This document shows positions 23,921 through 52,347 of a DNA stretch of 52,347 nt, piece after piece. This DNA is from a virus, in IMG/VR virus record IMGVR_UViG_3300020039_000013; one strand, 5' to 3'. The notes under the pieces are model-generated. The model was not told the origin of the DNA. It was given only the letters and a program-made list of their open reading frames with translations, and ran no database searches. The translations under genes and the position numbers were made by a program. How positions within the stretch are numbered: position 1 is the stretch's first letter; every line of letters begins with the position of its first letter.

Positions 23921-24353
23921 ATTGTTGTGCATTTTGACGGAAGCGGCGCGTTAATCGGCTGTTTTTGGCCTGTTTTGACCCCTAAAAGTTAAACAAAATA
24001 GGTATTTTGTTTACTTTTTCTGTTATGGTTAACCTGCGCGCACTTTCTGACCGGGATAACGTGCGTACCCACACCCGTGGGGTATGGTAGGGGGAGGGGA
24101 GGGGCCGGGTAAGCCCCAAATGCAACGAAAAATAAAAAAGGCGCGTCTCAAAAATTCCGCAAAAAACAAAAAGGGGCGGTCTGTGTTGCTGGCGTTTTTG
24201 CGGGGTTATTTGACGGGAAAATCAAGGATTGTAAAATTTGCACAAATGATGGGCGGCGACAGTCCCCTGCCCTGTTTTCGGAAAAAAACGGCGCGGCATG
24301 GTGTAACGGGAGCACACGGGTCTTTGACACCCGCAGTATCAGTTCAAGCCTGA

Positions 24354-26039
24354 TTGCCGCAGCCAACGCATCTTCTGATTGGGTGCGCACGGAGCCGAGC
24401 AAGGCAAAAGCTGGAGGAAACGCATATTCCTGTTGATTACGAAAAACTAAAGCAGCGTCTTGTCGGCATGGATGACCTGTCCGCGCTGGAGGACGCTTTT
24501 TCGCTTTGTGTCAATATGGACGACCACGCGACGAACAAAACCGTCCGGGCAAAGGCGCACGGGTTTATCCGGTCTGGCGGCGGGCAAAGGGCGCTGGACT
24601 TATATAACAAGACGCTTCTGTTTGATGCCAGGGCGGGTGACTTTGACTGTGCGTTTCGATATGCCGAAAGCAACCGCGAACTGAAAAAGCAGTTTTATCT
24701 TCCACGCCGCAAACAGTTATATCCCGTTGTGAAGGCATTGGAGGATTTGAACAAGCGCAAGATTCGCCTGTTGGGGATAATGGCTCCGCCTGGTATCGGA
24801 AAAACAACCGTGGCTGAGATGGGGACAATCTGCATGGGCGGCGAAAGACCGGATTTGAGCATTCTGTATTCGTCCCATAGCAATTCATTTCTTCGCGGAT
24901 TGTACGATGAAATACTCAGGATGTTAGACCCGAAAGGGGAATATAGATTTCATGAAATTTATCCTGGTTCAAAAGTAGTAAAAACGAACGCGCAAGATAT
25001 GAGGATCGACCTCGGAGATCGCAAGCGGTTTGAAACCTTTGAATTTAGTTCTGTCGGGTCTGGAAATGCCGGTAAAGTCCGTGCGTCTAATCTGCTTTAT
25101 GCAGATGACCTTGTTGACGGCATTGAAAGCGCGTTATCCAGGGAACGGATGGATAAACTATACCAGCAATACCACACTGACTTGCGGCAACGTATGATCG
25201 GTGATTGCGTTGAACTGTTGATACAAACTCCGTGGAGCGTGCATGATCCGATAGACCGGTTGGAGCAAATGTATTCTGATGATCCGATGGCTCGGTTTAT
25301 ACACCTTCCGGCGCTTGACGAAAACGACGAGAGCAATTTTGATTACCCGAACGGAGTGGGGTTTACAACAAAATTCTATCATGAACAGCGCGACATTATG
25401 GATGATGCAAGCTGGCGGGCGCTATACATGACGCAGCCGATAGAGCGGGAAGGGCAACTATATTGTGAAGAGGAGCTTCGCCGGTATTTTGAGCTTCCTG
25501 ATCGTGAACCGGATGCGATAATCGCCGTGACTGATACAAAGGACACGGGCAAAGACTTCTGTTGTATGCTGATAGCATATCAGTACGGAATAGATTTTTA
25601 TATTCACGATTTGGTTTATGAAAACTATGCTCCGCAGATCATAGACGAGCAGCTTGTTTTGAAACTGCTCGGCAATAAAGTTCAAATGTGCCAATTTGAA
25701 AGCAACGCTGCCGGTGGCCGAACCGCTGATAAGGTACAAGAAAAGATAAAAGCACAGGGCGGGATTACAAAAATCACAAAAAAGTGGACTACGGCAAACA
25801 AGGAAACAAAAATCATCGTTAATTCTCCGTTTGCCAAAGAACACTTTTTGTTTCTTGACAATAGCGTTATAAAGCAAAATAAAGAATACCGCGTATTTCT
25901 GAACGCACTGTGCGGCTATACCTTGACCGGGCGAAACAGTCACGATGACGCACCGGACGCCGTGGCGCAATTGTCGGAGTATGTCCAAAATCTGACCGTA
26001 TCAAAGGTTGAAGCTCTGCGCAGTCCGTTTCGGCGGTAA
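24354..26039 (+). CDS. terL: Terminase large subunit; start uncertain (possibly ATG 24468)
   Basis: Walker A LGIMAPPGIGKTT, Walker B-like LLYADDLVD, and a C-terminal nuclease region with HDDAPDA. Confidence 0.85.
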   Translation: MPQPTHLLIGCARSRARQKLEETHIPVDYEKLKQRLVGMDDLSALEDAFSLCVNMDDHATNKTVRAKAHGFIRSGGGQRALDLYNKTLLFDARAGDFDCAFRYAESNRELKKQFYLPRRKQLYPVVKALEDLNKRKIRLLGIMAPPGIGKTTVAEMGTICMGGERPDLSILYSSHSNSFLRGLYDEILRMLDPKGEYRFHEIYPGSKVVKTNAQDMRIDLGDRKRFETFEFSSVGSGNAGKVRASNLLYADDLVDGIESALSRERMDKLYQQYHTDLRQRMIGDCVELLIQTPWSVHDPIDRLEQMYSDDPMARFIHLPALDENDESNFDYPNGVGFTTKFYHEQRDIMDDASWRALYMTQPIEREGQLYCEEELRRYFELPDREPDAIIAVTDTKDTGKDFCCMLIAYQYGIDFYIHDLVYENYAPQIIDEQLVLKLLGNKVQMCQFESNAAGGRTADKVQEKIKAQGGITKITKKWTTANKETKIIVNSPFAKEHFLFLDNSVIKQNKEYRVFLNALCGYTLTGRNSHDDAPDAVAQLSEYVQNLTVSKVEALRSPFRR

Positions 26040-28597: not shown

Positions 28598-29587
28598 ATG
28601 ACGCTGGATATCATCGTACCGCATTACAAAGAACCGTGGGAAACATGCAAATATCTGTTTGACACCATCGCCACACAGCGCGGCGTCTGCTTTGACAACA
28701 TCCGCGTGATTGCGGTGAACGACGGGGACGATGTTGTTTTTGACCCTGACCGGATACCGGAATACCCATATAAAATCATTTGCCATGTGAAAGCGCATGA
28801 GGGCGTATCGGCGGCGCGGAATTACGGTCTGGACAACAGTAATGCCGATTACGTCATGTTTTGCGACATAGACGACGGTTTTTTAAACAACTACGGTTTA
28901 CATCTTGTGTTTGCCGCCATGCAGGATGGGTACGACTATATCTATTCCAACTTTGTGGAGGAAACATTTACCGCCGACAACACAATGACGATTATCCGGC
29001 ATGACAACGACTTTACTTTCATGCACGGGAAGATATATAAGCGGTCGTTTCTGATCGGGAACAACATCCGATTTGACCCTGCCATGACGCTGCACGAGGA
29101 CGGCTATTTCAACACCGTGGCGATGGTGACGGCGCAAAAAGAGGGAAAATTAAAGTGCATTGAGACGCCGTTTTATCTCTGGCGGTGGAACGACAACAGC
29201 ACGGTCAGAAGCAACCGGGAAGATTTCGTTTTACGGACGTATTACAATGTAATACAAACCCGGATCGGCGCTTGCGAGCAATTAAAGGCTCGCGGGTACG
29301 AGGAAGAATTCAAGACCGCCGTGTGCATGACGGTTTTGAACAGCTATTACGATTTTCAGAAACCGTCTTACCACACGGACAAGAACAAAGAACATCTGTC
29401 CAAAGCGGAAAAGGCGTTCAAGCGGTTTTGGATGAAATACGGCAAGGTATTTCTGGACTGTACCAATCTGCAAATCGCTGAAATCGCGCAGACGGCGCGG
29501 GCCAACGCCTGCAAGAACGGGATGTTGATGGAGCGACAGGATTTGCGCTCGTGGCTCAAACACATCGGGAACGATGTAAAAGCCTGA
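28598..29587 (+). CDS. Family-2 glycosyltransferase (GT-A fold)
   Basis: LDIIVPHYKEP, AVNDGDD, SAARNYGL and MFCDIDD (DxD) motifs. Confidence 0.85.
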   Translation: MTLDIIVPHYKEPWETCKYLFDTIATQRGVCFDNIRVIAVNDGDDVVFDPDRIPEYPYKIICHVKAHEGVSAARNYGLDNSNADYVMFCDIDDGFLNNYGLHLVFAAMQDGYDYIYSNFVEETFTADNTMTIIRHDNDFTFMHGKIYKRSFLIGNNIRFDPAMTLHEDGYFNTVAMVTAQKEGKLKCIETPFYLWRWNDNSTVRSNREDFVLRTYYNVIQTRIGACEQLKARGYEEEFKTAVCMTVLNSYYDFQKPSYHTDKNKEHLSKAEKAFKRFWMKYGKVFLDCTNLQIAEIAQTARANACKNGMLMERQDLRSWLKHIGNDVKA

Positions 29588-29861
29588 AAAGTAAATATCA
29601 AGTGGCTAACCCGGCCAGGTGAAAAGGGAAAACCTATCCCCTGCCACTTGTTATTTTAGGCAATCACAAAGGTAGTGATTTCACGGAAAAACCGTGGGAT
29701 TACTGCCTTTTTTGCATTTTCGGATATTTGCGGGAAACCGCTGGATATATCGCGTCGGAGATGACGCTAAAAAGCGCAAGGCTCGCAGAGAAGCGAGGGT
29801 AAAAAATTCGCAAAATTCAAAAACGTGAGAGAACACGAAAAAACGCAAAGGAGAAAACAAA

Positions 29862-34402: not shown

Positions 34403-34415
34403 AGGAGGTGTGCCT

Positions 34416-36320
34416 ATGGACGAAATCACTACAACGAGATTAACCATTGAAATAGGTGCATCATCTAATGAAGCGGTAGAGCAACTTAATCAAGTATCCG
34501 ATGGTCTGCGGAATCTGCAAAAGTATTCCAAGCAAAACATTAAGATCAATTCCGATGATGTCAGCAAAGCCCACAAAAGAGTAAGTGCGCTTTCCAACAT
34601 TCTAAATTCTTTAAAACGAATTGCTTTTTACCGCGTTATCCGCAGCGCAATCAAGGCGGTCGGCGAAGCATTCAGCGAGGGCGCGGAAAATGCCTATTGG
34701 TACTCCAAGACAATGGGCGATTCTACACGTTATATCGCGGACGCTTACGACAATCTATCCTCTGGCAGTTTTAAAATGAGCAACCAGCTCGGCGCGGCAT
34801 GGGCAACGCTGAAAGCGACGATAACGCCCATTCTGATCGAAATCGTTAAACTTGTCACCCGCGCGGCTGCTGCCATTGCGCAATTTTTCGCCGTTCTCGG
34901 TGGCAGGAGTACATACCTGAAAGCCATCGACTACTCAAAGGCATGGGCCGACACCACGGCGGCAGGCGCGGGCGCGGCTAAAGAGTGGAAAAACCAGCTC
35001 ATGGGTTTTGACGAGATCAACCGACTTGAAGAACCGTCTGCCGGTGGTGGCGGTGGAGGTGCGGCACTTCCCGATTATGGAAGCATGTTTGAGGAGGCAG
35101 AATTGTCGGCGTGGACCGATAAAGTAAAAACGGCACTATCATGGGTTAAAGACCATCTTGATTTGATAAAAGCCGTTGCAATCGGCATAGGGGCGGCAAT
35201 TCTTGCATGGAAGCTGATTAATTTTTTAAACAATCTCTTCAAGATCGGTCTGTCGATGCAGCAAATTCTTGGCTTTGCCATTGCAATTGGAGGAGCAGTT
35301 GTTTATTCGCAAGGTTTTATTGATGCATGGAAAAACGGACCGGATTGGGACAATATTGCAGAAATGATAGGGGGCGTAACAGCCGCCGCAATCGGGCTTG
35401 GGCTTTCAATTGGCGGCGCAGCCGCAGGAATCGTGTTGCTTGTCGGCGGTATTGGAATGCTTGCAATCGGGTTAAAGCAATGGATTACTACCGGCACTTT
35501 ATCCACAAAAGCATTCTGGCTTATGGAGGCAGGAATCGTAGCTGTGGGCATAGGCATTTCCCTTCTGACCGGCTCGTGGATTCCGGCGATTGTGGCAGCG
35601 GCTGTAGGGATGGCGCTTGCAGTATACAACAATTGGGACAGCATCGTTCAAAAAACCAGCGAGTTGCGGGATAAGGTCGTTCAAAAATGGGATGAAATAA
35701 AAACAAACATCACAGCCAAAATAAACAGCATACGCACCGACATTTCCAACGGATGGACGCAGATGAAAAACAGCGTGGTTCAACGTGTTTCGGAAATGTG
35801 GAGCGGCGTTACCGAAAAGTGGGAAGGAATACGCAGTACCATTTCCGGGAAAATCTCCCAAATCAAAAATCTGCTTAATTTTTCCTGGTCTTTGCCGAAG
35901 CCAAAAATGCCGCACATTGATTGGTGGTGGCAGGATATAGGCGGGATATTGAGCATTCCGCGCTTTACCGTTTCGTGGTACGCGCAAGGCGGTATTGTTG
36001 ACGGCGCGACGCTGATCGGGGCCGGGGAAGCCGGAAAAGAAGCGATTATCCCGTTGGAGCGCAATACCGAGTGGATCGGTAAAGTGGCCGCTGAAATGAA
36101 CGCCATACAGTCCAGGCGCGGACAGACGGAAGCCAGAGAGGAAAGCATTGCGGACGGAATAGAGGACAGCGGCATTATTACCGTGCTTTATCAGATTTTG
36201 AGCGTTGCGCAGGACATTTCCCGCACGGACAGAGGCACCGGCAGCGCGGACTTCGATTCCTTTGTCCGCAGTGTTACAAGGGTCCAGAGGCAGCAGGCCA
36301 GAGCTGCCGGGACAGTATAA
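34416..36320 (+). CDS. Tape measure protein
   Basis: 634 aa, helical with Gly/Ala-rich hydrophobic segments, position after the chaperones. ATG after AAGGAGG. Confidence 0.85.
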   Translation: MDEITTTRLTIEIGASSNEAVEQLNQVSDGLRNLQKYSKQNIKINSDDVSKAHKRVSALSNILNSLKRIAFYRVIRSAIKAVGEAFSEGAENAYWYSKTMGDSTRYIADAYDNLSSGSFKMSNQLGAAWATLKATITPILIEIVKLVTRAAAAIAQFFAVLGGRSTYLKAIDYSKAWADTTAAGAGAAKEWKNQLMGFDEINRLEEPSAGGGGGGAALPDYGSMFEEAELSAWTDKVKTALSWVKDHLDLIKAVAIGIGAAILAWKLINFLNNLFKIGLSMQQILGFAIAIGGAVVYSQGFIDAWKNGPDWDNIAEMIGGVTAAAIGLGLSIGGAAAGIVLLVGGIGMLAIGLKQWITTGTLSTKAFWLMEAGIVAVGIGISLLTGSWIPAIVAAAVGMALAVYNNWDSIVQKTSELRDKVVQKWDEIKTNITAKINSIRTDISNGWTQMKNSVVQRVSEMWSGVTEKWEGIRSTISGKISQIKNLLNFSWSLPKPKMPHIDWWWQDIGGILSIPRFTVSWYAQGGIVDGATLIGAGEAGKEAIIPLERNTEWIGKVAAEMNAIQSRRGQTEAREESIADGIEDSGIITVLYQILSVAQDISRTDRGTGSADFDSFVRSVTRVQRQQARAAGTV

Positions 36321-40236: not shown

Positions 40237-40443
40237 ATGAGCGATTGGCTGGAGCGAACGATCAAAACCTTTGTACAGGCGTTTTTCGGCGTAGTGATCC
40301 CGGAGCTGTGCATTGTGCTGTCAGGCGGTTTCCCGGAAAAATGGTCCGCGCTGTGGGGCGTGCTTGCGCCTGTCGTTTCCGCCGCTCTGTCCGCTGCAAT
40401 CTGCGCGGCATGGAACATTATCAAAGAGCGGCTGGATGGATGA
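40237..40443 (+). CDS. Holin
   Basis: 68 aa with two hydrophobic helices, N-terminal RTIKTFVQAFFG pattern, directly after the endolysin. Confidence 0.6.
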   Translation: MSDWLERTIKTFVQAFFGVVIPELCIVLSGGFPEKWSALWGVLAPVVSAALSAAICAAWNIIKERLDG

Positions 40444-40462: not shown

Positions 40463-40756
40463 ATGAGCGACGCGGTAATCGTCGCCCTTATCACGGTAAC
40501 GGCCAACATCATTATTCAGGTGGTGTTGGCCGGAGCGCAAAGCAAAGACCTCCTGGCAAAACTGCAAGCGGAAAGCCAGCTCAACGACGCGAAACTGGAC
40601 GCCAAACTGGAGAAGTTTCAGGCTGTGCAAATCGAGCGCGTAGATGAGTTGAGCCGCCGTGTGGAAAAGCACAATCAGGTGGTGGAGCGGACTTATGCTT
40701 TGGAAGAAAAAGTAGGGCGGCACGACGAACAGCTAAAAACACTTTTTAACAAGTGA
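40463..40756 (+). CDS. N-terminally membrane-anchored coiled-coil protein (lysis accessory?)
   Basis: TM helix VIVALITVTANIIIQVVLAG followed by a helical region. Located in the lysis cassette. Confidence 0.45.
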   Translation: MSDAVIVALITVTANIIIQVVLAGAQSKDLLAKLQAESQLNDAKLDAKLEKFQAVQIERVDELSRRVEKHNQVVERTYALEEKVGRHDEQLKTLFNK

Positions 40757-40764
40757 GGATGAAT

Positions 40765-41022
40765 ATGGCGGAGAAAGAGAGAAGCCAGTATACCTTGGAC
40801 ATTTGGGCGGCCATGGTCGAGCGGACAATCAAGAAACTGTGGTGCATCATTATTTTGCTTATCGCGCTTTTGTTTGGAAGCAATGCGGCGTGGATATGGT
40901 ATGAAAGCCAGTTTGCCGATGAAGTCATCACACAGGAAGTCGAGCAAAACGCCGATAACGGAATCAACAGATTTGTAGGCGGTGATTACTATGGCACACC
41001 AGAGGATCAGAATAACGATTAG
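40765..41022 (+). CDS. Small membrane protein
   Basis: ATG 5 nt after GAGGA. TM helix [21 protein letters not shown]. Confidence 0.5.
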
Positions 41023-41116
41023 ACGGCGCACCAGAAAACACGGCGGCAACACGGGCTACAAGAAGTGCCCCAACTGCGGCGGCGACGGTGTGGTTAAAGT
41101 CCGCAAGAAAAAGTAA
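40991..41116 (+). CDS. Very basic 41-aa peptide with CPNCGG motif
   Basis: [41 protein letters not shown]. Overlaps the upstream gene by 32 nt. Weak RBS. Confidence 0.3.
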
Positions 41117-41129
41117 GGGAGCGGTTACG

Positions 41130-42680
<1,551 letters not shown>

Positions 42681-42694
42681 AAGGAGGATTCATC

Positions 42695-42952
42695 ATGTTT
42701 TCTGTTCACGATTTTATCATGGAGACCCTGCATGGAATGGTAGGCCACTACCCGGATTTCCAGGTACGGGAGTACGCTCTCAACTGGTACGGCAAGGGCA
42801 AGCTCAACGAGGACGACCTTGCCATTGTGGAAACGTGGCTGAATCCCACGCCGGTGGAGGAAACTGAGCCGGAGGGCGAGGAAGCCCCCGAAGAGGAATC
42901 CGAAGAGCAGGAAACAGAACATGACCCTTTGGGCAATTATGTTCTTCTTTAA
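42695..42952 (+). CDS. Hypothetical protein with an acidic C-terminal tail (possibly XkdX-like)
   Basis: AAGGAGG RBS, position after the fibre gene. Confidence 0.45.
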   Translation: MFSVHDFIMETLHGMVGHYPDFQVREYALNWYGKGKLNEDDLAIVETWLNPTPVEETEPEGEEAPEEESEEQETEHDPLGNYVLL

Positions 42953-43013
42953 TTAGCCGCGTCTTTTAAATCAAAAGCAGAAAGGAGAGATAAAAACGCT
43001 CCCTGATTTTGAG

Positions 43014-43799
43014 ATGATTCAGCACCAGTTTTTGGGCGGTCAAGACATTACCATCATTCCCATATCCGACGTGCATCTTGGCTCGGAGGAATGTATGGAA
43101 CAAAGGTTTATAGAGTTTATCGAGACGGTAAAAAACACGCCGAACACTTACCTTACATTGGGCGGGGATTTGATAGATAATGGCACCCGATCCGGGGTCA
43201 GCAACATATTCCGCGCAACCATGCCGCCGAGCCAGCAGAAGAAAGAAATGGCGAATATCCTGTCAGAAGTGCGAGACCGTATTTTGTGTTTCGTCCCCGG
43301 AAACCATGAACGGCGCAGCGGGAAAGACGCGGACGACGACCCATGCTACGATATTGCTGCCAAACTCGACCTTGAACATCTGTACCGCGAAAATATAGCT
43401 TTTCTGAAAATACAGCTGGGCAAGAGGAACCGGGAAAACGGCACAATTGCTTCAGGGGATGAGCGCCCCACGTATATCCTCACTGTAACGCACGGCGCTG
43501 GCGGAGGTATTCTGACTGGTGCGGCCGTGAACCGAAACGAGAGATTTGCATGCGTTCTGGACGGGTGCGACGCACTGATCATAGGCCATACGCATAAACC
43601 GTTTACTACGCAGCCGGGGAAGATTTTTATTGACCCGCGCAACAACAAAGTATCTGTCAAGCCGTTCAAGGTGATTTCTTCGACGAGCTGGCTGGAATAC
43701 GGAGGGTACGCGGCGCAAAAGATGTTATTGCCGTCCACACACTGCTTGCAGACGCTGACATTAAAGGGCGACCACAAAGAAATGTCGGTGACGATGTGA
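43014..43799 (+). CDS. Calcineurin-like metallophosphoesterase
   Basis: ISDVHLG, GGDLIDN, GNHE and IIGHTH motifs in canonical order. Confidence 0.8.
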   Translation: MIQHQFLGGQDITIIPISDVHLGSEECMEQRFIEFIETVKNTPNTYLTLGGDLIDNGTRSGVSNIFRATMPPSQQKKEMANILSEVRDRILCFVPGNHERRSGKDADDDPCYDIAAKLDLEHLYRENIAFLKIQLGKRNRENGTIASGDERPTYILTVTHGAGGGILTGAAVNRNERFACVLDGCDALIIGHTHKPFTTQPGKIFIDPRNNKVSVKPFKVISSTSWLEYGGYAAQKMLLPSTHCLQTLTLKGDHKEMSVTM

Positions 43800-43993
43800 A
43801 GGAGTACACCAACAGCCAAATCGCCGCGCTGATCGACGAGCACATCCACAATTGCCGTGACCGGGACATACTCAAATCCCGTTATATTGATGGCTTGACA
43901 TACGAGCGATTAGCGGAAAAATACGACCTATCCACGCAGCGCGTGAAAACTATTGTTTATAAGTCCCAGCAAAAGTTGATACGCTATCTCTGA
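43796..43993 (+). CDS. Small sigma-70 region-4-like HTH protein (possible late regulator)
   Basis: RDILKSRYIDGLTYERLAEKYDLSTQRVKTIVYKSQQKL resembles sigma region 4 / LuxR-type HTH. Confidence 0.55.
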   Translation: MKEYTNSQIAALIDEHIHNCRDRDILKSRYIDGLTYERLAEKYDLSTQRVKTIVYKSQQKLIRYL

Positions 43994-44016
43994 AAGATAG
44001 CCGAAAAGAGTACAAA

Positions 44017-44057
44017 AGACGACCCGTTGATTGATTTCGACAGGCCGTCTTTTTTTA
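44017..44057 (+). terminator. Rho-independent terminator ending the late operon
   Basis: AGACGACC pairs with GGCCGTCT (one mismatch), followed by TTTTTTT. Confidence 0.65.
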
Positions 44058-44078: not shown

Positions 44079-44201
44079 GTGCGCCGATTGGGTAGTTATG
44101 ATAACGACTGGCTGTTTTTGGACGACGATTTGTTTTGCGTCTGGTTTGAGAACGACATCTGCGAAAACGAGCGGAACGAAGAGCCGGAGGAACCCGACTG
44201 A
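44079..44201 (+). CDS. Small acidic peptide (40 aa)
   Basis: GTG after AGAAAGAAGG. Its stop overlaps ATG 44201 (TGATG). Confidence 0.3.
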   Translation: MRRLGSYDNDWLFLDDDLFCVWFENDICENERNEEPEEPD

Positions 44202-44587
44202 TGCCGTGGGAGATGTACGAGCCGAACCCGGTCAGAACGGGGGCTATTGATTGCTCTACACGGGCTTTGGCAAAAGCGCTGGATATCTCTTGGGAACGGG
44301 CCTATCTTCTCAAATCCGTAAATGGGTTCCTCATGGGTAATGAGGGCGTAGCGGACGAAGTATGGGGAAGCGTTCTTAGGCAACATGGGTTTACACGACA
44401 TGTCGTTCCTGACACATGCCCTGATTGCTACACAATTGAGGACTTTTGCGCCGATCACCCGGAGGGTACATATGTGGTCAAAAGCGACGAACATGTAGCA
44501 ACAATCGTCGATGGCATACTCTATGATTCTTGGCCCTCACAAGGTAAAACAGTAATTTTCTACTGGACAAACAGAAAGGATGAATAA
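44201..44587 (+). CDS. Hypothetical protein with a possible Cys/His/Asp peptidase-like triad
   Basis: GAIDCSTRALAKAL near the N-terminus and EHVATIVDGILYDSW near the C-terminus. A family I recall from phages, function unknown. Confidence 0.5.
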   Translation: MPWEMYEPNPVRTGAIDCSTRALAKALDISWERAYLLKSVNGFLMGNEGVADEVWGSVLRQHGFTRHVVPDTCPDCYTIEDFCADHPEGTYVVKSDEHVATIVDGILYDSWPSQGKTVIFYWTNRKDE

Positions 44588-44589
44588 AC

Positions 44590-45099
44590 ATGGCCTATCC
44601 GTACAACTCTTATCAAAACCCTTATCAGTATTACCCCGTGTATCAGCAACCGCAGTATCAGCAACCGCAACAGCCTGTTCAACAGAGCGTTCAGCAGACG
44701 CCACCCGTGTATTCAAGCGGAATTATTTGGGTATCCGGCCTAATGGAAGCCCAAGCCTATCCAATCGCCCCTAATAACGCAGTTGCTCTTTGGGCGAAAG
44801 ACGGTAAGACGATATATCTCAAACAGGCAGATGCTACAGGTAAGCCCACCATGACCGTGTATGACCTCGTAGAACGCGCTGAGAGCGCTTCTAACGACGG
44901 GCAAGGCGCAGGGGATAAATCAACCGCCTATGCCACCAAAGACGAACTGAGCGCAGTTGTCGGCGTCGTGAAGGGCTTTGACGAGCTTATAGGTAGCATC
45001 AAGTCTGACATTGACACTATGAAAACCGATATGTACGGCGCTGTAAGCAAGCGGCGCGTGTCGAAAAAGGCTGTGGAGGCGGCAGAAGATGATGAATAA
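44590..45099 (+). CDS. Protein with a Q/Y/P-rich low-complexity N-terminus
   Basis: MAYPYNSYQNPYQYYPVYQQPQYQQPQQPVQQSVQQTPPVY, then a globular part. Good RBS. Confidence 0.6.
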   Translation: MAYPYNSYQNPYQYYPVYQQPQYQQPQQPVQQSVQQTPPVYSSGIIWVSGLMEAQAYPIAPNNAVALWAKDGKTIYLKQADATGKPTMTVYDLVERAESASNDGQGAGDKSTAYATKDELSAVVGVVKGFDELIGSIKSDIDTMKTDMYGAVSKRRVSKKAVEAAEDDE

Positions 45100-45286
45100 T
45101 CCCATGCAGATGCTTCAAGCCCTCAAAAGCAATCCCGTACAGTTTTTGATGCAGAGGAAGTTCAATATCCCCGCGAACATGGCAAGCGACCCAAACGCTA
45201 TCATTCAGCACTTGCTTTCCACAAACCAAATCAGCCAAGAGCAAGTCAACCGCGCCTATCAGCAGATAGGACAGTTCAAAAGATAA
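45089..45286 (+). CDS. Small helical hypothetical protein
   Basis: ORF track, GGAGG RBS. Confidence 0.5.
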   Translation: MMNNPMQMLQALKSNPVQFLMQRKFNIPANMASDPNAIIQHLLSTNQISQEQVNRAYQQIGQFKR

Positions 45287-45580
45287 AAACGCAAAATCAC
45301 GTTTTTAAGTGGGCATTTTGAGAAAAAATCAAGGAATTTGCCCCGATAAAACGTAAATAGTTTCTTCTAAAGTGCAAATATGGCACTTAAAAAGAAAGAT
45401 TTTGCACTTTGAAATGTAGTTAAATTCTCTCCACGAATTACAGCAAAAGTGTAATTGGTGGAGAAAAAACGTATCTTTTCTTCTACCGAGTGCGCATTAG
45501 GTGGAAGTTTAGAGACCCCGTAGTAAATCTGTCTGCTACGGGCTTACCCCCAACAATTAGGGGAGAAAGGAAAATTAAAT

Positions 45581-46414
45581 ATGGACTCCGAAAACATGGT
45601 TATGCCTGTCGCTCCCGCTTATGGCGGTGGCTATGGCAACGGCGGCTTCGGTGGCTTTGGCGGCGACTGGGGTTGGATCATTCTTCTCCTGCTGTGCGCT
45701 AACGGCGGCTGGGGCGGTTTTGGTGGCTTCGGTGGCATGGGCGGAATGATGGGCCTCGGCTTTGACTTCCCCTGGCTGCTCAACGGTCAGCAGAACGTGT
45801 CGAACAACGTCTCTGACGGCTTCCGGGACGCTCAGCTTCACGACAGCGTGACCTCCGTGCGTGACGGCGTAAGCAATCTGGCTACACAGCTCTGCGGTTG
45901 CTGCGGCGACATTCAGAACACCCTTTGCAGCGGATTCGCTGGCGTGACCGCTTCTGTAAACGGCGCTCAGAACGCCATTGCACAGCAGCTCTATTCCAAC
46001 GAGATCGCTTCTCTGAACCGTAGCTTTGCCGAGCAGACCGCTAATACTGCTGGCTTCACCGCCACCAACACCGGGATTGCCGACCTCAAGTACACCATTG
46101 CAAGTGAGGCTTGTGCGGATCGTGCCGCCGTGACGGCTGGCATTCAGACTGTTCTGGATAAGCTGTGCGCTCTGGAACTGGATTCTGCCAAGCGTGAAGC
46201 CGCTGATCTCCGTCAGCAGTTGAACATGGCCCAGCTTGCGGCTTCTCAGACCGCTCAAAATGCGTTTATCTCCCAGGGCTTTGCAAACGAGGTTGACGCT
46301 CTGTACAACCGTCTGAACTCCTGCCCTGTGCCTACCACTCCTGTCTATGGACGCACTCCCATCTTCACCTGCAACAGCGGGTGCGGATGCAGCGGCAACG
46401 GCTTTGTGAACTGA
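45581..46414 (+). CDS. Gly-rich, membrane-spanning, Cys-rich protein of unknown function
   Basis: GGGYGNGGFGGFGGDWGW, TM helix IILLLLCA, second Gly-rich block, then a Q/N/A/S/T-rich region with CGCCG and a C-terminal CNSGCGCSGNG. Confidence 0.65.
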   Translation: MDSENMVMPVAPAYGGGYGNGGFGGFGGDWGWIILLLLCANGGWGGFGGFGGMGGMMGLGFDFPWLLNGQQNVSNNVSDGFRDAQLHDSVTSVRDGVSNLATQLCGCCGDIQNTLCSGFAGVTASVNGAQNAIAQQLYSNEIASLNRSFAEQTANTAGFTATNTGIADLKYTIASEACADRAAVTAGIQTVLDKLCALELDSAKREAADLRQQLNMAQLAASQTAQNAFISQGFANEVDALYNRLNSCPVPTTPVYGRTPIFTCNSGCGCSGNGFVN

Positions 46415-46424
46415 GGTAACTGCC

Positions 46425-46877
46425 ATGGCAAAGGTTCTTACGACTACCGATCAGAATGTGGCTCTTAATGGCACCATTCCGTTCGACTATGTATCTATCC
46501 CGTGCAACAAAGGCTGTGTTGTGCCTATTACAACCGGGGTTCTATCTTTGCGCGGCGGTTCCAATCAGCCCGCACGGTATGAGGTGAAACTTCAATCGAA
46601 CGTGGCTGTCCCCGAAGGTGGGGCTGTGACCCCTCTGGCTTTGGCAATCACGTTGAACGGCGTTGCGATCCCCGACAGCGTGGCGATTATTACCCCTGCT
46701 GCGGCAGAGGACGTATGGCACATTAACACGTCTACAACGATCAATGTACCTTGTAATTGCTGCGTGTCTGTGTCTGCCGCCTATGTTGACGCTACAGAAG
46801 ATGACGCGACGGTTACGCCTACGCCGTCTATTTTCGTGAGACGCAGAGCTTCGCTTGAAGCTATCCGCGTAGCCTAA
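46425..46877 (+). CDS. Beta-rich 150-aa protein with CNKGC and CNCC motifs, unknown function
   Basis: ORF track, RBS, 10-nt spacing from the upstream gene. Confidence 0.6.
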   Translation: MAKVLTTTDQNVALNGTIPFDYVSIPCNKGCVVPITTGVLSLRGGSNQPARYEVKLQSNVAVPEGGAVTPLALAITLNGVAIPDSVAIITPAAAEDVWHINTSTTINVPCNCCVSVSAAYVDATEDDATVTPTPSIFVRRRASLEAIRVA

Positions 46878-46894
46878 CGGGAAGGAGGACGAAT

Positions 46895-47353
46895 ATGGAA
46901 CATCTTGAAGGAATCCTTAAACTGGCCGATAACGAGCTGGAAAGCATTTTAAAAAATGGCAAATTCCGCTCCCGCGAGGAAATTGAGAGCGTCGGAGAGC
47001 TCATCGACATGGCGAAAGACATCTACTGCATTTGGGAGTATGAGGACGGCGCTATGGAGGATGAAATGTCCTATGCTGACGGTATGAGCTATCAGCGGCG
47101 CGGTGGGAATCGTTCTTACCGTGGAGGCAGCTACGACGGAGGATCCTATGCTCGTGGGCGCAGAGGAAACGTAAAGCGCGACAGCATGGGCCGGTATGCC
47201 CGTGAGGGTGCTTATCGCGGCTCCTATCGCGGTTACGCCCGCGACGGAAAAGAAGAGTACATGGAACAACTGCGTGATATGATGGAGGATGCCCCGGATG
47301 AAAAGACCCGGCAGAGCATCCAGCGCATGATTACGCAGATGGAACAAGGCTGA
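46895..47353 (+). CDS. Protein with a central Arg/Gly/Tyr/Ser-rich low-complexity region flanked by helices
   Basis: Strong GAAGGAGG RBS. SYQRRGGNRSYRGGSYDGGSYARGRRGNVKRDSMGRYAREGAYRGSYRGYARDG. Confidence 0.65.
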   Translation: MEHLEGILKLADNELESILKNGKFRSREEIESVGELIDMAKDIYCIWEYEDGAMEDEMSYADGMSYQRRGGNRSYRGGSYDGGSYARGRRGNVKRDSMGRYAREGAYRGSYRGYARDGKEEYMEQLRDMMEDAPDEKTRQSIQRMITQMEQG

Positions 47354-47370
47354 CCCCTTGAAAAAGGGAG

Positions 47371-47402
47371 AGGGCGAGAGGATTATTCCTCCCGCCCTTT
47401 TA
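47371..47402 (+). terminator. Rho-independent terminator after the cargo cluster
   Basis: AGGGCGAGAGGA pairs with TCCTCCCGCCCT (one mismatch, TTAT loop), followed by TTT. Confidence 0.65.
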
Positions 47403-47405
47403 CAT

Positions 47406-47564
47406 TTATCTCATTTTCCTATATGCCGGGAACTTCAGTGTTTCCTCATGGATAGCAATACAAACGTCGCAAGGTGGAAAGTCAGGTAAACAATTACGAT
47501 GAATACAAGTATCGCAATCGTTTTTTCCCGTTAAAAATAAACTTTTAATCTTATCCGTATTCAT
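47406..47564 (-). CDS. Possible small Cys-rich ORF (52 aa)
   Basis: MNTDKIKSLFLTGKNDCDTCIHRNCLPDFPPCDVCIAIHEE... No good RBS. Confidence 0.25.
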   Translation of the reverse strand: MNTDKIKSLFLTGKNDCDTCIHRNCLPDFPPCDVCIAIHEETLKFPAYRKMR

Positions 47565-47745: not shown

Positions 47746-47788
47746 TGGTGGAGATAAGCGGGATCGAACCGCTGACCTCTTGAATGCC
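47746..47788 (-). other. attP core: 3' portion of a tRNA gene (T-arm, acceptor 3' strand, CCA)
   Basis: Minus strand reads ...AGGTCAGCGGTTCGATCCCGCTTATCTCCACCA. No complementary 5' acceptor strand or D-arm is present upstream. Confidence 0.65.
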
Positions 47789-47830
47789 ATTCATTAAGAA
47801 AGTGTTGATATTACAGTATTTTTTTAGCAT

Positions 47831-47854
47831 TTGTAAACCACTTGTAAACCATAG
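47831..47854 (+). repeat. Putative integrase arm-type site (right)
   Basis: TTGTAAACCACTTGTAAACCATAG, a direct repeat of 47610-47634. Confidence 0.6.
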
Positions 47855-47857
47855 CGG

Positions 47858-48985
47858 TCAAAGGGCGTTTGTGATTTTTTTCAAACCGTCAAGGTTGGCG
47901 TGTGTGTACTCCATCGTTTGGGATATGGACGCATGGCCGATCATGGCGGCTTTGTCTTTGTCCGAAATCTCAATGTCTTTCATCAAGGTCGCAAACGTAT
48001 GACGGCAACAATGGGGGACTTTTCGGACGATCCCTGCAGCATCCAACGCCGGATAATAAATCTCTTCCCGGAACTTTTTTGCCGATATTTTTTTGCCGTT
48101 TTCGGAAAAGATGTAACCGGGTTTAATATGCCGTTTTACCAAGGGCAATATTTTAGGGGATATGCCGACAAGCCTGTTTCGACCCGCGTCGGTTTTCAGA
48201 CCGCCGACAAAAAATGACCAGTCCTTTTCTTCGTGATAGTCATTTTCTGTCAGCCCTAAAAGCTCTTCCAAGCGAAAGCCGGTATAGCACAGGATTAGAA
48301 CAAGGTCGATGTGGTTTGCTTTATAATCGTAGTCCGGCGCGTTAACGATATCCCACATCTTCTTCAACTCTACATTTGAAAACGGCTCTCGTGGGTCTTG
48401 TCTTTCCCCGCGCGGCGTTAGGCCCTCCGCATAGTTTTTTTCTGCCAAATCGTTGGACATTGCCATGCGAAACAGCATTGTACCGAGGGCTTTCATATTT
48501 TCTTGTGTCCGCTTTCCCTTGCCACATTTGTCCATGCACTCTTGTAATGTGGCAGTTTTGATGTTTTTGACTTTGTAATACTGTATATCTTTATAATATT
48601 TCCACGCGGCCTTGTAGCAGTTCATTGTGGATTTGGAAACGTCATTTTCGTGCTGAGTGCTCCACTGCTTATAAAGGTCGATCAGGGGCATGTTTTTATT
48701 AACTGCACTTGTCCCGTCCGCTTTTGCCTGCAATATAGGTATGTAGGCCAGGGCGTCCCTTTTCGTCGGGAATCCCCCCTTTGAGACACGCTTTCTGATT
48801 GTTTTTTCTCCGTCATGATAAGTTGCCGCGTTGCATATCGCCGTCCACGTTTTTCCTCTTTTTATTGCCGTTCCCTGCCCGTTTCCGCGCTTTTTCTTTG
48901 TTGGCGTATAGTTGACCGCTCTGCCGCATTGGTAGCAAAAATTGGCGTCCTTTGGCAGCTCACAGCCGCATTTCTGACAGATCAT
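47858..48985 (-). CDS. int: Tyrosine integrase with an N-terminal zinc ribbon
   Basis: MICQKCGCELPKDANFCYQCG at the N-terminus. C-terminal catalytic region HCCRHTFATLM...IGHASISQTMEYTH. Confidence 0.9.
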   Translation of the reverse strand: MICQKCGCELPKDANFCYQCGRAVNYTPTKKKRGNGQGTAIKRGKTWTAICNAATYHDGEKTIRKRVSKGGFPTKRDALAYIPILQAKADGTSAVNKNMPLIDLYKQWSTQHENDVSKSTMNCYKAAWKYYKDIQYYKVKNIKTATLQECMDKCGKGKRTQENMKALGTMLFRMAMSNDLAEKNYAEGLTPRGERQDPREPFSNVELKKMWDIVNAPDYDYKANHIDLVLILCYTGFRLEELLGLTENDYHEEKDWSFFVGGLKTDAGRNRLVGISPKILPLVKRHIKPGYIFSENGKKISAKKFREEIYYPALDAAGIVRKVPHCCRHTFATLMKDIEISDKDKAAMIGHASISQTMEYTHANLDGLKKITNAL

Positions 48986-51765: not shown

Positions 51766-52347
51766 GCGAAGAAATCATTAAGTCCTACAAGGGCTTTGAC
51801 AAGAATCTGAAATGCCATGGAGGGTTTCAGTACGAGATCGGCAAGGAGTATGAAATGGAGGGGCTGATTGAAGCGTGTAACCGGGGTTTCCACGCTTGCG
51901 AAGCTCCGCTGGACGTATTCAAATACTTCCCGCCCACGAAGAGCCGCTATTGTGAAGTAAAGCAGTCCGGCGTGTTTTCACGGGATAACAATGACACCAA
52001 GGTTGCCAGCAGCAAAATCAAGATTGGCGCAGAGATCGGTATTCCTGGTTTGGTTAAAGCGCAAATTAAATGGACGCGGGAGAAATCTGGTAGAGAAGGT
52101 AATCCCACGTCCGGCTCCGGGTCGAGTGCCGCAACGTCCGGCTTTAGGTCGAGTGCCGCAACGTCCGGCTCCGGGTCGAGTGCCGCAACGTCCGGCTCCG
52201 GGTCGAGTGCCGCAACGTCCGGCGACTGGTCGAGTGCCGCAACGTCCGGCGACTGGTCGAGTGCCGCAACGTCCGGCTTTAGGTCGAGTGCCGCAACGTC
52301 CGGCGACTGGTCGAGTGCCGCAACGTCCGGCGACTGGTCGAGTGCCG
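51762..52347 (+). CDS. 5' portion of the tandem-repeat protein. Its N-domain is paralogous to 2722..3552, followed by 9-aa repeats. The ORF runs off the window and continues at 1..372.
   Basis: ATGA overlap start. SYKGFDKNLKCHGGFQYEIGKEYE...CNRGFHAC aligns with the 2722 gene. No stop before the window end. Confidence 0.8.
   Translation, partial: MSEEIIKSYKGFDKNLKCHGGFQYEIGKEYEMEGLIEACNRGFHACEAPLDVFKYFPPTKSRYCEVKQSGVFSRDNNDTKVASSKIKIGAEIGIPGLVKAQIKWTREKSGREGNPTSGSGSSAATSGFRSSAATSGSGSSAATSGSGSSAATSGDWSSAATSGDWSSAATSGFRSSAATSGDWSSAATSGDWSSA
52107..52347 (+). repeat. 27-nt tandem repeat array (about 9 units), continues at 1..171
   Basis: acgtccggcNNNNNNtcgagtgccgca units encoding TSGxxSSAA, with xx = SG, FR, SG, SG, DW, DW, FR, DW, DW. 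Confidence 0.95.

Follow-up and report, generated by a model that had tools for sequence, protein, structure and literature searches.

The 52,347-nucleotide (nt) virus sequence IMGVR_UViG_3300020039_000013 from IMG/VR, taken at its full length and hereafter called the window, carries a cluster of six plus-strand open reading frames (ORFs) within positions 44,079 to 47,402. We name ORFs 1 to 6 of the cluster g1 to g6 and refer to them together as the module; the small helix-turn-helix (HTH) gene to its left is called sig4. An earlier reading of this DNA, made from the sequence alone, had taken the cluster for insulated cargo in a lysogenic-conversion slot beside attP, encoding low-complexity, glycine-rich and cysteine-rich proteins. 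Comparison with relatives shows instead that g1-g6 are a portable, co-inherited phage gene module and not the cargo of one prophage, and that the module is independent of lysogeny. Its genes and signals are as follows (lengths in amino acids, aa).

43796-43993, plus strand: sig4, 65 aa, last gene ahead of the upstream terminator
44014-44057, plus strand: intrinsic terminator closing the preceding late operon (hairpin of -17.3 kcal/mol, z = -6.0, then U7)
44201-44587, plus strand: g1, 128 aa
44590-45099, plus strand: g2, 169 aa
45089-45286, plus strand: g3, 65 aa, its start overlapping the end of g2
45287-45580, plus strand: g3-g4 spacer, a structured leader for g4-g6; it has a strong hairpin at 45428-45466 and, ahead of g4, a strong ribosome-binding site
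45581-46414, plus strand: g4, 277 aa
46425-46877, plus strand: g5, 150 aa
46895-47353, plus strand: g6, 152 aa
47371-47402, T-rich on both strands: terminator closing the module (stem of 12 pairs, 8 of them G-C; hairpin at 47371-47398, -24.3 kcal/mol, z = -4.5)

The ORF coordinates and the gene calls of the source contig (ENA ERZ3810914, NODE_83) bear out the six plus-strand genes described earlier. The calls are identical for all six and add a 37-aa ORF upstream of g1, at about 44088-44201, whose sole match among the loci fetched for comparison is in L025 (E = 0.017). Both flanking terminators had likewise been proposed and fold well against shuffled sequence, so that the module has on each side the insulating transcription signals expected of a moron. 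No clear sigma-70 promoter was found between 44057 and 44201. The product of sig4 matches Pfam Sigma70_r4 (PF04545) with 35.3 bits, above the cut-off of 24.1; it is region 4 alone, and hence no complete sigma factor. The G+C content of the module (0.50-0.54 across 44-47 kb) is not atypical for the window, most of which lies at roughly 0.5.

The structured leader before g4 is also upheld: the 294-nt spacer has a minimum free energy of -92.3 kcal/mol (z = -6.9 against shuffled sequence), and the hairpin at 45428-45466, with z = -7.3 by itself, is the main source of this folding signal. Among relatives the spacer ranges from 48 nt to more than 1 kb (median about 93 nt), and just fragments of it can be aligned, even with the closest loci. 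Against Rfam it gave no match at gathering score, and a permissive threshold yielded chance-level matches only. A conserved riboswitch or leader RNA at this place was rejected on these grounds, i.e. variable length and sequence and the lack of an Rfam match.

Distribution and gene order

We compared 144 related loci, including 80 fetched from IMG/VR, where at least 554 matches were confirmed, and 63 from species-representative genomes, mostly phage-sized contigs in rumen or gut metagenome-assembled genomes. Presence of each gene was scored by tblastn and by clustering all ORFs; several loci are cut by contig ends. The recurring order is lysin, small membrane protein, sig4 or a DUF1492-like HTH protein, then g1-g2-g3-g4-g5-g6, often followed next by a 110-130-aa protein (clusters c9/c41). 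Beyond the module, the next genes are replication genes of the same strand (SNF2, DnaD-like and DnaC-like by sequence inspection) or else an integrase gene that runs the opposite way. The module stands directly behind lysis genes in most loci, and is co-directional with its neighbouring genes in every locus compared.

The trio g4, g5 and g6, whose co-occurrence in other genomes had been set beforehand as the test of the cluster, does co-occur. By tblastn, the 141 loci with g4 have g1 in 125, g5 in 114 and g6 in 70, in the same order; clustering finds g6 in 73 loci, with an analogue (cluster c23) in loci of variant order. Clustering further places g2 in 108 loci and g3 in 82 (61 by tblastn), the position of g3 being always between g2 and g4. 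A sig4 relative lies just upstream of g1 in 69 of the 144 loci, and elsewhere the DUF1492-like HTH protein (cluster c13) replaces it. Genes flanking the module in the window are mostly not conserved along with it. Matches of at least 50% coverage were found across the loci for g4 in 135 (median identity 55%) and for g1 in 125 (43%); the lysin has 7 such matches, the tape measure 2 and the tail protein Tal 0. The tail protein of the window has no relatives in IMG/VR. Each of the six proteins thus has relatives in dozens to more than 100 independent loci, and the recurrence of the module is not due to chance. Five of the six proteins (g1-g5) fall into PHROG families, all labelled as of unknown function, and because of these matches we regard them as recurrent phage genes rather than oddities of this genome.

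In Butyrivibrio phage Ceridwen, the five-gene core directly follows the lysis genes and a terminator, with a g6-like gene two genes further on, and no integrase gene is present within the stretch of the record examined. The proteins concerned are QHJ73765-QHJ73769 and, for the g6-like gene, QHJ73771. Its authors report finding no sign of excisionase genes and observed the phage in the lytic cycle only (PMC7372960).

Relatives of g4 extend to phages of other hosts. They occur in many Crassvirales genomes, e.g. cr125_1 (NC_055900.1, our locus L147), which scores 88.8 bits against the g4 profile; in C3_41T2LP, a cultured phage of Bacteroides uniformis that scores 104 bits; and in viruses assigned to Methanomassiliicoccales. 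The gene order in cr125_1 is holin, LysB/FtsL-like protein, a protein with an R/G/Y-rich tail, the g4 relative, a small protein, and a protein with a helical-looking C-terminal part. Behind the g4 relative of C3_41T2LP come similar proteins and a 77-aa R/D/Y-rich one with a weak match to the g6 profile (E = 0.007); the proteins of this phage are WLZ21182-WLZ21179. Comparison of these crAss-like and Bacteroides phage neighbours with the g5, g2 and g6 families (hhalign, hmmsearch) gave no homology, and the parallel is one of architecture only. Several annotated genes of cr125_1 have in-frame stop codons under genetic code 11, which were read as Gln for the comparisons; this agrees with the stop-codon reassignment known in some crAss-like phages.

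This distribution bears directly on the proposal that the module is a moron, that is, lysogenic-conversion cargo or spore or envelope cargo that benefits the lysogen. The insulated part of that proposal stands: terminators flank the module, attP and an integrase gene adjoin it, and in several other temperate relatives it likewise lies directly ahead of an integrase gene. The cargo part does not. Instead of a patchy presence in temperate phages only, beside att and int, we see an order conserved in most of the 144 loci and a module fixed in hundreds of otherwise unrelated phage contigs, far more widespread and constant in position than is usual for morons. That order is kept in Ceridwen; many loci have replication genes next, or carry the module inside the head operon; the G+C content is ordinary for the window; and five of the proteins belong to phage families. 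The occurrence of g4 relatives in phages of non-sporulating Bacteroides, in crAss-like phages and in viruses assigned to archaea makes the suggested association with spores unlikely as well. Distribution thus largely refutes the cargo reading, to which we assign a very small probability.

The g4 protein and its partners

The g4 protein (phrog_16490, E = 4e-17) belongs to a large family. A sequence search reached at least 8000 clusters at 90% identity; among the 120 matches listed, all are unnamed or hypothetical and none has a Pfam domain. A profile search of a library clustered at 50% identity reached 1234 clusters, the best 150 of which are all short proteins that stand alone (93-367 aa), none of them fused to a known domain. 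The AlphaFold2 model of the monomer gives g4 a predicted three-part architecture of hydrophobic head, one very long helix and cysteine-rich tail, with helices at residues 31-40 and 80-247 (about 168 residues) and disordered glycine-rich flanks. Its block-mean predicted local distance difference test score (pLDDT) is 74-96 over residues 121-250, and the overall value is 66.

In the head, residues 1-72 are 33% glycine and hold no Lys or Arg, surrounding the segment WIILLLLCA over which the first helix is modelled. This head, glycine- and aromatic-rich around a 10-residue hydrophobic core, keeps its composition in the family, with a median of zero Lys or Arg over the first 60 residues and a median of 30% Gly. 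A crude sum of translocon free energies for g4 comes to +3.0 kcal/mol (family median +2.8; the holin-like protein of the window, a weak control, +2.3). The long helix is charge-poor and 49% A/Q/N/S/T; no heptad periodicity was found in it, and a canonical coiled coil was rejected for that reason. The number of internal repeats differs between relatives. The tail is disordered and rich in Pro and Cys, CPVPTTPVYGRTPIFTC..GCGC, and its motif CP[VI]P..PVYG..PIF.C..GCGC is nearly universal in the family. The glycine-rich head, the eleven cysteines (39, 105, 107, 108, 116, 178, 196, 248, 264, 268 and 270), the CGCCG and the C-terminal CNSGCGCSGNG that had been read from the sequence are all present; Cys39 is not conserved in the family.

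The g1 protein (phrog_3754, E = 7e-27) had been called a possible Cys/His peptidase-like protein, and this description gains substance. Alignments of 42 and 79 sequences show no variation at D17, C18, H98 or D109, and a CPDC motif (Cys73, Cys76) is conserved. In the AlphaFold2 model (mean pLDDT 93), Cys18 lies in helix 14-27, His98 starts strand 98-103 and Asp109 ends the neighbouring strand 106-109. A conserved Cys in a helix followed by conserved His and Asp on adjacent strands is the papain-like pattern, and Cys18-His98-Asp109 are the putative catalytic triad. Checking predicted structures with Foldseek had been proposed beforehand. It gave papain-like enzymes as the best matches of g1 in the PDB (Josephin-2, the PaTox protease domain, viral deubiquitinases), none of them significant (best E = 0.34, template modeling score 0.44), and for g4, modelled as a single helix, no match. 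Against BFVD the g1 model has 24 significant matches, all uncharacterised phage proteins from many host groups, while a phage protein named 'Peptidase C39 domain' matches at just E = 0.01. Sequence relatives of g1 without the rest of the module are found in Tsamsa-like Bacillus phages and in Geobacillus phage GBK2. Residue order, size (about 130 residues) and top structural matches thus liken g1 to the papain-like cysteine peptidases of clan CA (C39 bacteriocin-leader, Josephin-type and viral deubiquitinases), from which it differs in having no significant match to any solved structure or Pfam peptidase family. Searches of g1 and its family alignments against Pfam and NCBIfam gave no match and no peptidase family. 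On its sequence and modelled fold, g1 is predicted to be a papain-like enzyme, divergent and belonging to a broad family that occurs in many phages.

The compositions that had been noted for g2, g5 and g6 also hold. In g2 (phrog_21718, E = 1e-24), residues 1-43 are 74% Q/Y/P/N, with a family median of 60% over the first 35 residues. This Y/Q/P-rich N-terminus is followed by a conserved core, GIIWVQGEAGAKxYxVAPN...IYLKSADASGMP (alignment A8), and then by a short C-terminal stretch in which Y-x-T-K-x-E-L is a conserved motif. A perfect 15-nt direct repeat at 44640-44669 encodes the repeated Q/Y/P-rich segment at the g2 N-terminus, which suggests growth of the low-complexity region by slippage. 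The small g3 is Met/Gln-rich (phrog_22984, E = 8e-6). The middle of g6 (residues 55-112) is 67% R/G/Y/S (family median 65%) and holds the conserved motif SYARGRGRNARRDSMGRYS, with a conserved APDE..TR near the C-terminus (alignment A7, 41 sequences). Conserved motifs are thus combined with low-complexity regions in both g2 and g6, which by their alignments are more than low-complexity proteins. In g5 (phrog_20016, E = 6e-21), the cysteines at 27, 31, 110, 112 and 113 form CNKGC and CNCC. Its gene, where present, always comes after g4. It matches Pfam BclA_C (PF18573) with 14.7 bits, below the threshold of 38, and 3 of 46 family members match this domain, with a best E of 2.5e-5. The g5 profile has no match among PDB sequences, and precomputed Pfam domains are absent from the 120 g5 homologues listed. 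A fold like BclA_C or C1q/TNF may be a candidate for g5. Inspection by eye of g1, g2, g3, g5 and g6 revealed no N-terminal signal peptide or lipobox.

The retained compositions invite a different view of the whole, in which the low-complexity regions of g2 (Q/Y/P), g4 (G/F/W/Y) and g6 (R/G/Y/S) form a self-assembling or condensate matrix, with g1 as a transglutaminase-like cross-linker and the cysteines adding disulfide or metal bridges. It is composition rather than sequence that is kept in these regions, as the family medians above show, and analogous R/Y/D-rich and beta-plus-helix proteins lie beside g4 relatives in Bacteroides phages. Transglutaminases use a Cys-His-Asp triad, such as the one proposed for g1. 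The strictly conserved motifs of g6 and g2, however, point to specific binding over bulk phase behaviour, and g1 has no detectable relation to transglutaminase families. We therefore consider such a matrix improbable.

None of the six proteins reaches threshold against Pfam or NCBIfam. When the proteins and their family alignments were scanned with Pfam, NCBIfam, PHROGs and PADLOC, the weak BclA_C match and one to Baculo_PEP_C were all that appeared besides the PHROG families. PADLOC has no match for g1, g2, g3, g5 or g6, and a match of the g4 helix to its type I specificity-subunit model (E = 1.7e-4, 18.6 bits) was taken as spurious. Profile searches of PDB sequences for g1, g5 and g4 gave nothing significant, a fusion glycoprotein appearing for g4 at E = 3.9. 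Literature searches returned no description of the module. The claim that the cluster resembles no standard phage function therefore holds in that g1-g6 are without a match to any annotated family of virion, lysis or defence proteins. No system described so far corresponds to the module, whose families are catalogued in PHROGs yet uncharacterised; a new mechanism is not thereby shown.

Besides the papain-like peptidases, four known systems share some features with the module. (i) Spanins of phages with Gram-negative hosts (lambda Rz/Rz1, P2 LysB/LysC) resemble g4 in the hydrophobic N-terminus, long helical domain, conserved cysteines and proline-rich end, in the usual position right after holin and endolysin genes, and in that the predicted helix of about 25 nm would suit an envelope-spanning distance. 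There is no relation of sequence or fold, however, and the module has six to seven genes, not two. Compared with a type II anchor, the g4 head and long helix have no flanking positive charges, marginal hydrophobicity and no heptad pattern. No outer-membrane lipoprotein partner is visible by eye, g5 being without signal peptide or lipobox. The hosts, too, are mostly monoderm Firmicutes, and cr125_1 has a separate LysB-like gene. (ii) BclA_C, the C1q/TNF-like trimeric knob of the Bacillus exosporium and of some phage fibres, resembles g5 in its length of about 150 residues and through the three family matches, but g5 stays below the Pfam threshold and lacks both a collagen-like stalk and a PDB profile match. 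(iii) Viral fibres and class I fusion proteins (reovirus sigma1-type) share with g4 a hydrophobic glycine-rich N-terminus followed by a very long helix. Depositors named crAss-like phage homologues in this sense, but these are labels only; g4 has no significant PDB or Foldseek match and no heptad periodicity, and the phages bearing the module are tailed and not known as enveloped. (iv) Tape-measure or pilot proteins are the last comparison. In T5 Pb2 a long helix is combined with glycine-rich hydrophobic segments, and g4 likewise has a long single helix and such segments, with possible membrane entry. The window has its own tape-measure-sized gene, however, and g4, encoded apart from the tail operon, has dedicated partner genes and a tail rich in cysteine.

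A reading of the module as a glycocin-like or other ribosomally synthesized and post-translationally modified peptide system, suggested by the C39-like g1, the Cys/Gly tail and glycosyltransferases in some relatives, was set aside because the window and most loci have no glycosyltransferases and 277 aa is an unlikely size for a precursor.

Possible roles of the module

The reading we favour, with a probability of roughly one in three (0.35), is that the module, probably late-expressed, builds a membrane-anchored complex around g4. Late genes are its usual neighbours: those of the lysis cassette in most loci, head genes in some. In the infected cell, the products would assemble into a structural complex centred on g4. 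The uncharged glycine- and aromatic-rich head of g4 would insert into the cytoplasmic membrane, its helix would project from the membrane (about 25 nm, if the roughly 168 residues form one straight helix), and its Pro/Cys-rich tail would dock g5. g2 and g6 would join via their conserved motifs and low-complexity regions, g1 would cut or cross-link one partner, and g3 would be a small helper. Because the composition of the head is kept across phages with unrelated virion proteins and across host phyla, its docking target should be universal, e.g. a lipid bilayer, and we infer that the simplest candidate is the cytoplasmic membrane, the one target that Firmicutes, Bacteroides and archaeal hosts share. 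To the eye, none of the other five proteins carries an export signal, which suggests that assembly takes place on the cytoplasmic side. The complex might serve late membrane remodelling or marking, and the frequent position beside holin genes suggests a role in lysis and egress, or in the exclusion of superinfecting phages.

The main alternative, nearly as likely, is that the module encodes an accessory structure carried by the virion, either a fibre, with g4 as a helical shaft anchored by its hydrophobic N-terminus and g5 as the knob, or a set of proteins that are packed in the particle and leave it with the DNA, where g4, with its long helix and a head like a fusion peptide, would enter the next host's membrane in the manner of tape-measure or pilot proteins. 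This alternative draws on about 15 loci in which the module lies inside the head operon. Their arrangement, differing in detail between loci, is TerL, SPP1-type portal, Phage_min_cap2, module, scaffold, HK97-type capsid and Minor_capsid_2. The module order within it is either the standard one or g2-like, g3-like, g4, g5, g6-like, g1, and distant counterparts stand in for some members, mainly g2, g3 and g6. At its start, g1 overlaps with the stop codon of the minor capsid gene in L140 and L143, i.e. the two are translationally coupled. Homologues of g4 in crAss-like and Bacteroides phages carry the depositor labels 'spike protein/glycoprotein' and 'outer capsid protein/viral fiber', which are unverified. 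Also in keeping with a virion structure are the invariable co-direction of the module with its neighbours, the sub-threshold BclA_C similarity of g5, the collagen-like tail-fibre gene nearby in the window and the glycosyltransferase genes nearby in relatives. A membrane target at entry would equally explain the presence of g4 across host phyla.

Head-operon loci also have other accessory genes. In L114, L127, L101 and L138, the gap between Phage_min_cap2 and scaffold holds the module together with genes for GT2/GT1 glycosyltransferases and for AgrB-domain, ART-PolyVal and HTH proteins, and from this gene content the gap appears to be a variable region of the head operon, a hotspot for accessory genes. 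In L114 a gene for a collagen-repeat protein lies just upstream of the minor capsid gene.

Several points weigh against a virion location. The N-terminal region of g4 is kept across phages with unrelated capsid, portal and tail proteins, so that a specific place for it to dock on the particle is difficult to imagine. The module of the window forms a transcription unit of its own after a terminator, with its own small regulator gene ahead. The PHROG families have no structural annotation, and a folded, cysteine-bearing g5 would be an unlikely substrate for ejection.

The membrane-anchored complex that we favour has difficulties of its own. The head-operon loci, including the two in which g1 overlaps the minor capsid stop codon, are at least equally compatible with a virion role. 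Recombination and replication genes adjoin the g4 relative in C3_41T2LP, so that late expression is not general; the timing of expression is deduced from gene position only. The hydrophobic core of g4 spans just about 10 residues and its crude insertion sum is unfavourable, which leaves membrane insertion plausible. With no heptad periodicity and a monomer model of modest overall pLDDT, a straight stalk and an oligomeric state are not established for g4.

A broader proposal, which we hold to be unlikely, is that the g4 family and its partners form a new kind of viral apparatus that acts on membranes whatever the phylum of the host. Equipped with a long helix and a head like a fusion peptide, it would remodel membranes in egress or entry and move as a cassette, and would be common to Firmicutes gut and rumen siphophages, Bacteroides crAss-like phages and tailed viruses of gut methanogens.

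That genes so widespread and so tightly conserved have no function assigned to them leaves a real gap in the annotation of phages, and the finding concerns very many gut and rumen phages, beyond this one prophage. If the module acts on membranes at lysis or entry, it would be a new component of the textbook infection cycle. The question is open to experiment because two cultured phages, Butyrivibrio phage Ceridwen and Bacteroides phage C3_41T2LP, carry the module or its core.

Surroundings in the window

Other features on either side of the module are listed here.

34410-36320: tape-measure-sized gene, 636 aa
39362-40222: endolysin gene, GH25 + CW_7, upstream of the module
40237-40443: holin-like gene, phrog_443, upstream of the module
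40463-40756 and 40753-41022: two small ORFs with hydrophobic segments, after the holin-like gene
47746-47900, minus strand: tmRNA 3'-part fragment (attP core), matching positions 218-374 of the Rfam tmRNA model at E = 9.5e-4, short of the gathering score
47858-48985, minus strand: integrase gene, Phage_integrase, its 3' end overlapped by the tmRNA fragment

The attP that had been placed beside the module is borne out by the tmRNA fragment, which abuts the integrase gene; the phage probably integrates into ssrA, to judge from this fragment. Between the module terminator and attP, a 52-aa cysteine-rich ORF (CDTC...C...C..C; 47406-47564, minus strand) has no relative among the fetched loci.

A disguised lysis cassette was also considered for the module and rejected, since a complete lysis cassette lies upstream and none of g1-g6 matches a lysis family. 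Between the lysis block and sig4 lie, in this order, a collagen-repeat tail-fibre-like gene (530 aa), an 85-aa ORF and a gene for a calcineurin-like metallophosphoesterase, which together occupy 41088-43799. This stretch, rather than the module, looks like the variable insertion at this place, because most related loci go from the small membrane protein to sig4 directly or via one short ORF.

That small membrane protein (40753-41022, plus strand) belongs to cluster c8, which is co-conserved just upstream of sig4 and the module in 41 loci. Besides a helical N-terminus, it contains a single hydrophobic helix and, C-terminally, the motif ...NYIG.DGDI.NGE. It falls in no PHROG or Pfam family, and its sequence (h3/c8) is too variable to serve as a search query.

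Three further features lie outside the region of the module. An Rfam int-alpA RNA motif at 29599-29661 (plus strand; 43.7 bits against a gathering score of 35.8) stands directly downstream of a 329-aa ORF at 28598-29587, probably the major capsid gene, which is an unusual site for this motif. A tRNA-Gln gene (anticodon TTG) at 24292-24365 (plus strand) slightly overlaps the start of a 561-aa ORF at 24354-26039, probably the large terminase gene. At 52107-52347, a tandem array of a 27-nt unit (8.9 copies, 92% identity) reaches the end of the window, and may represent iterons, operator repeats or an origin.

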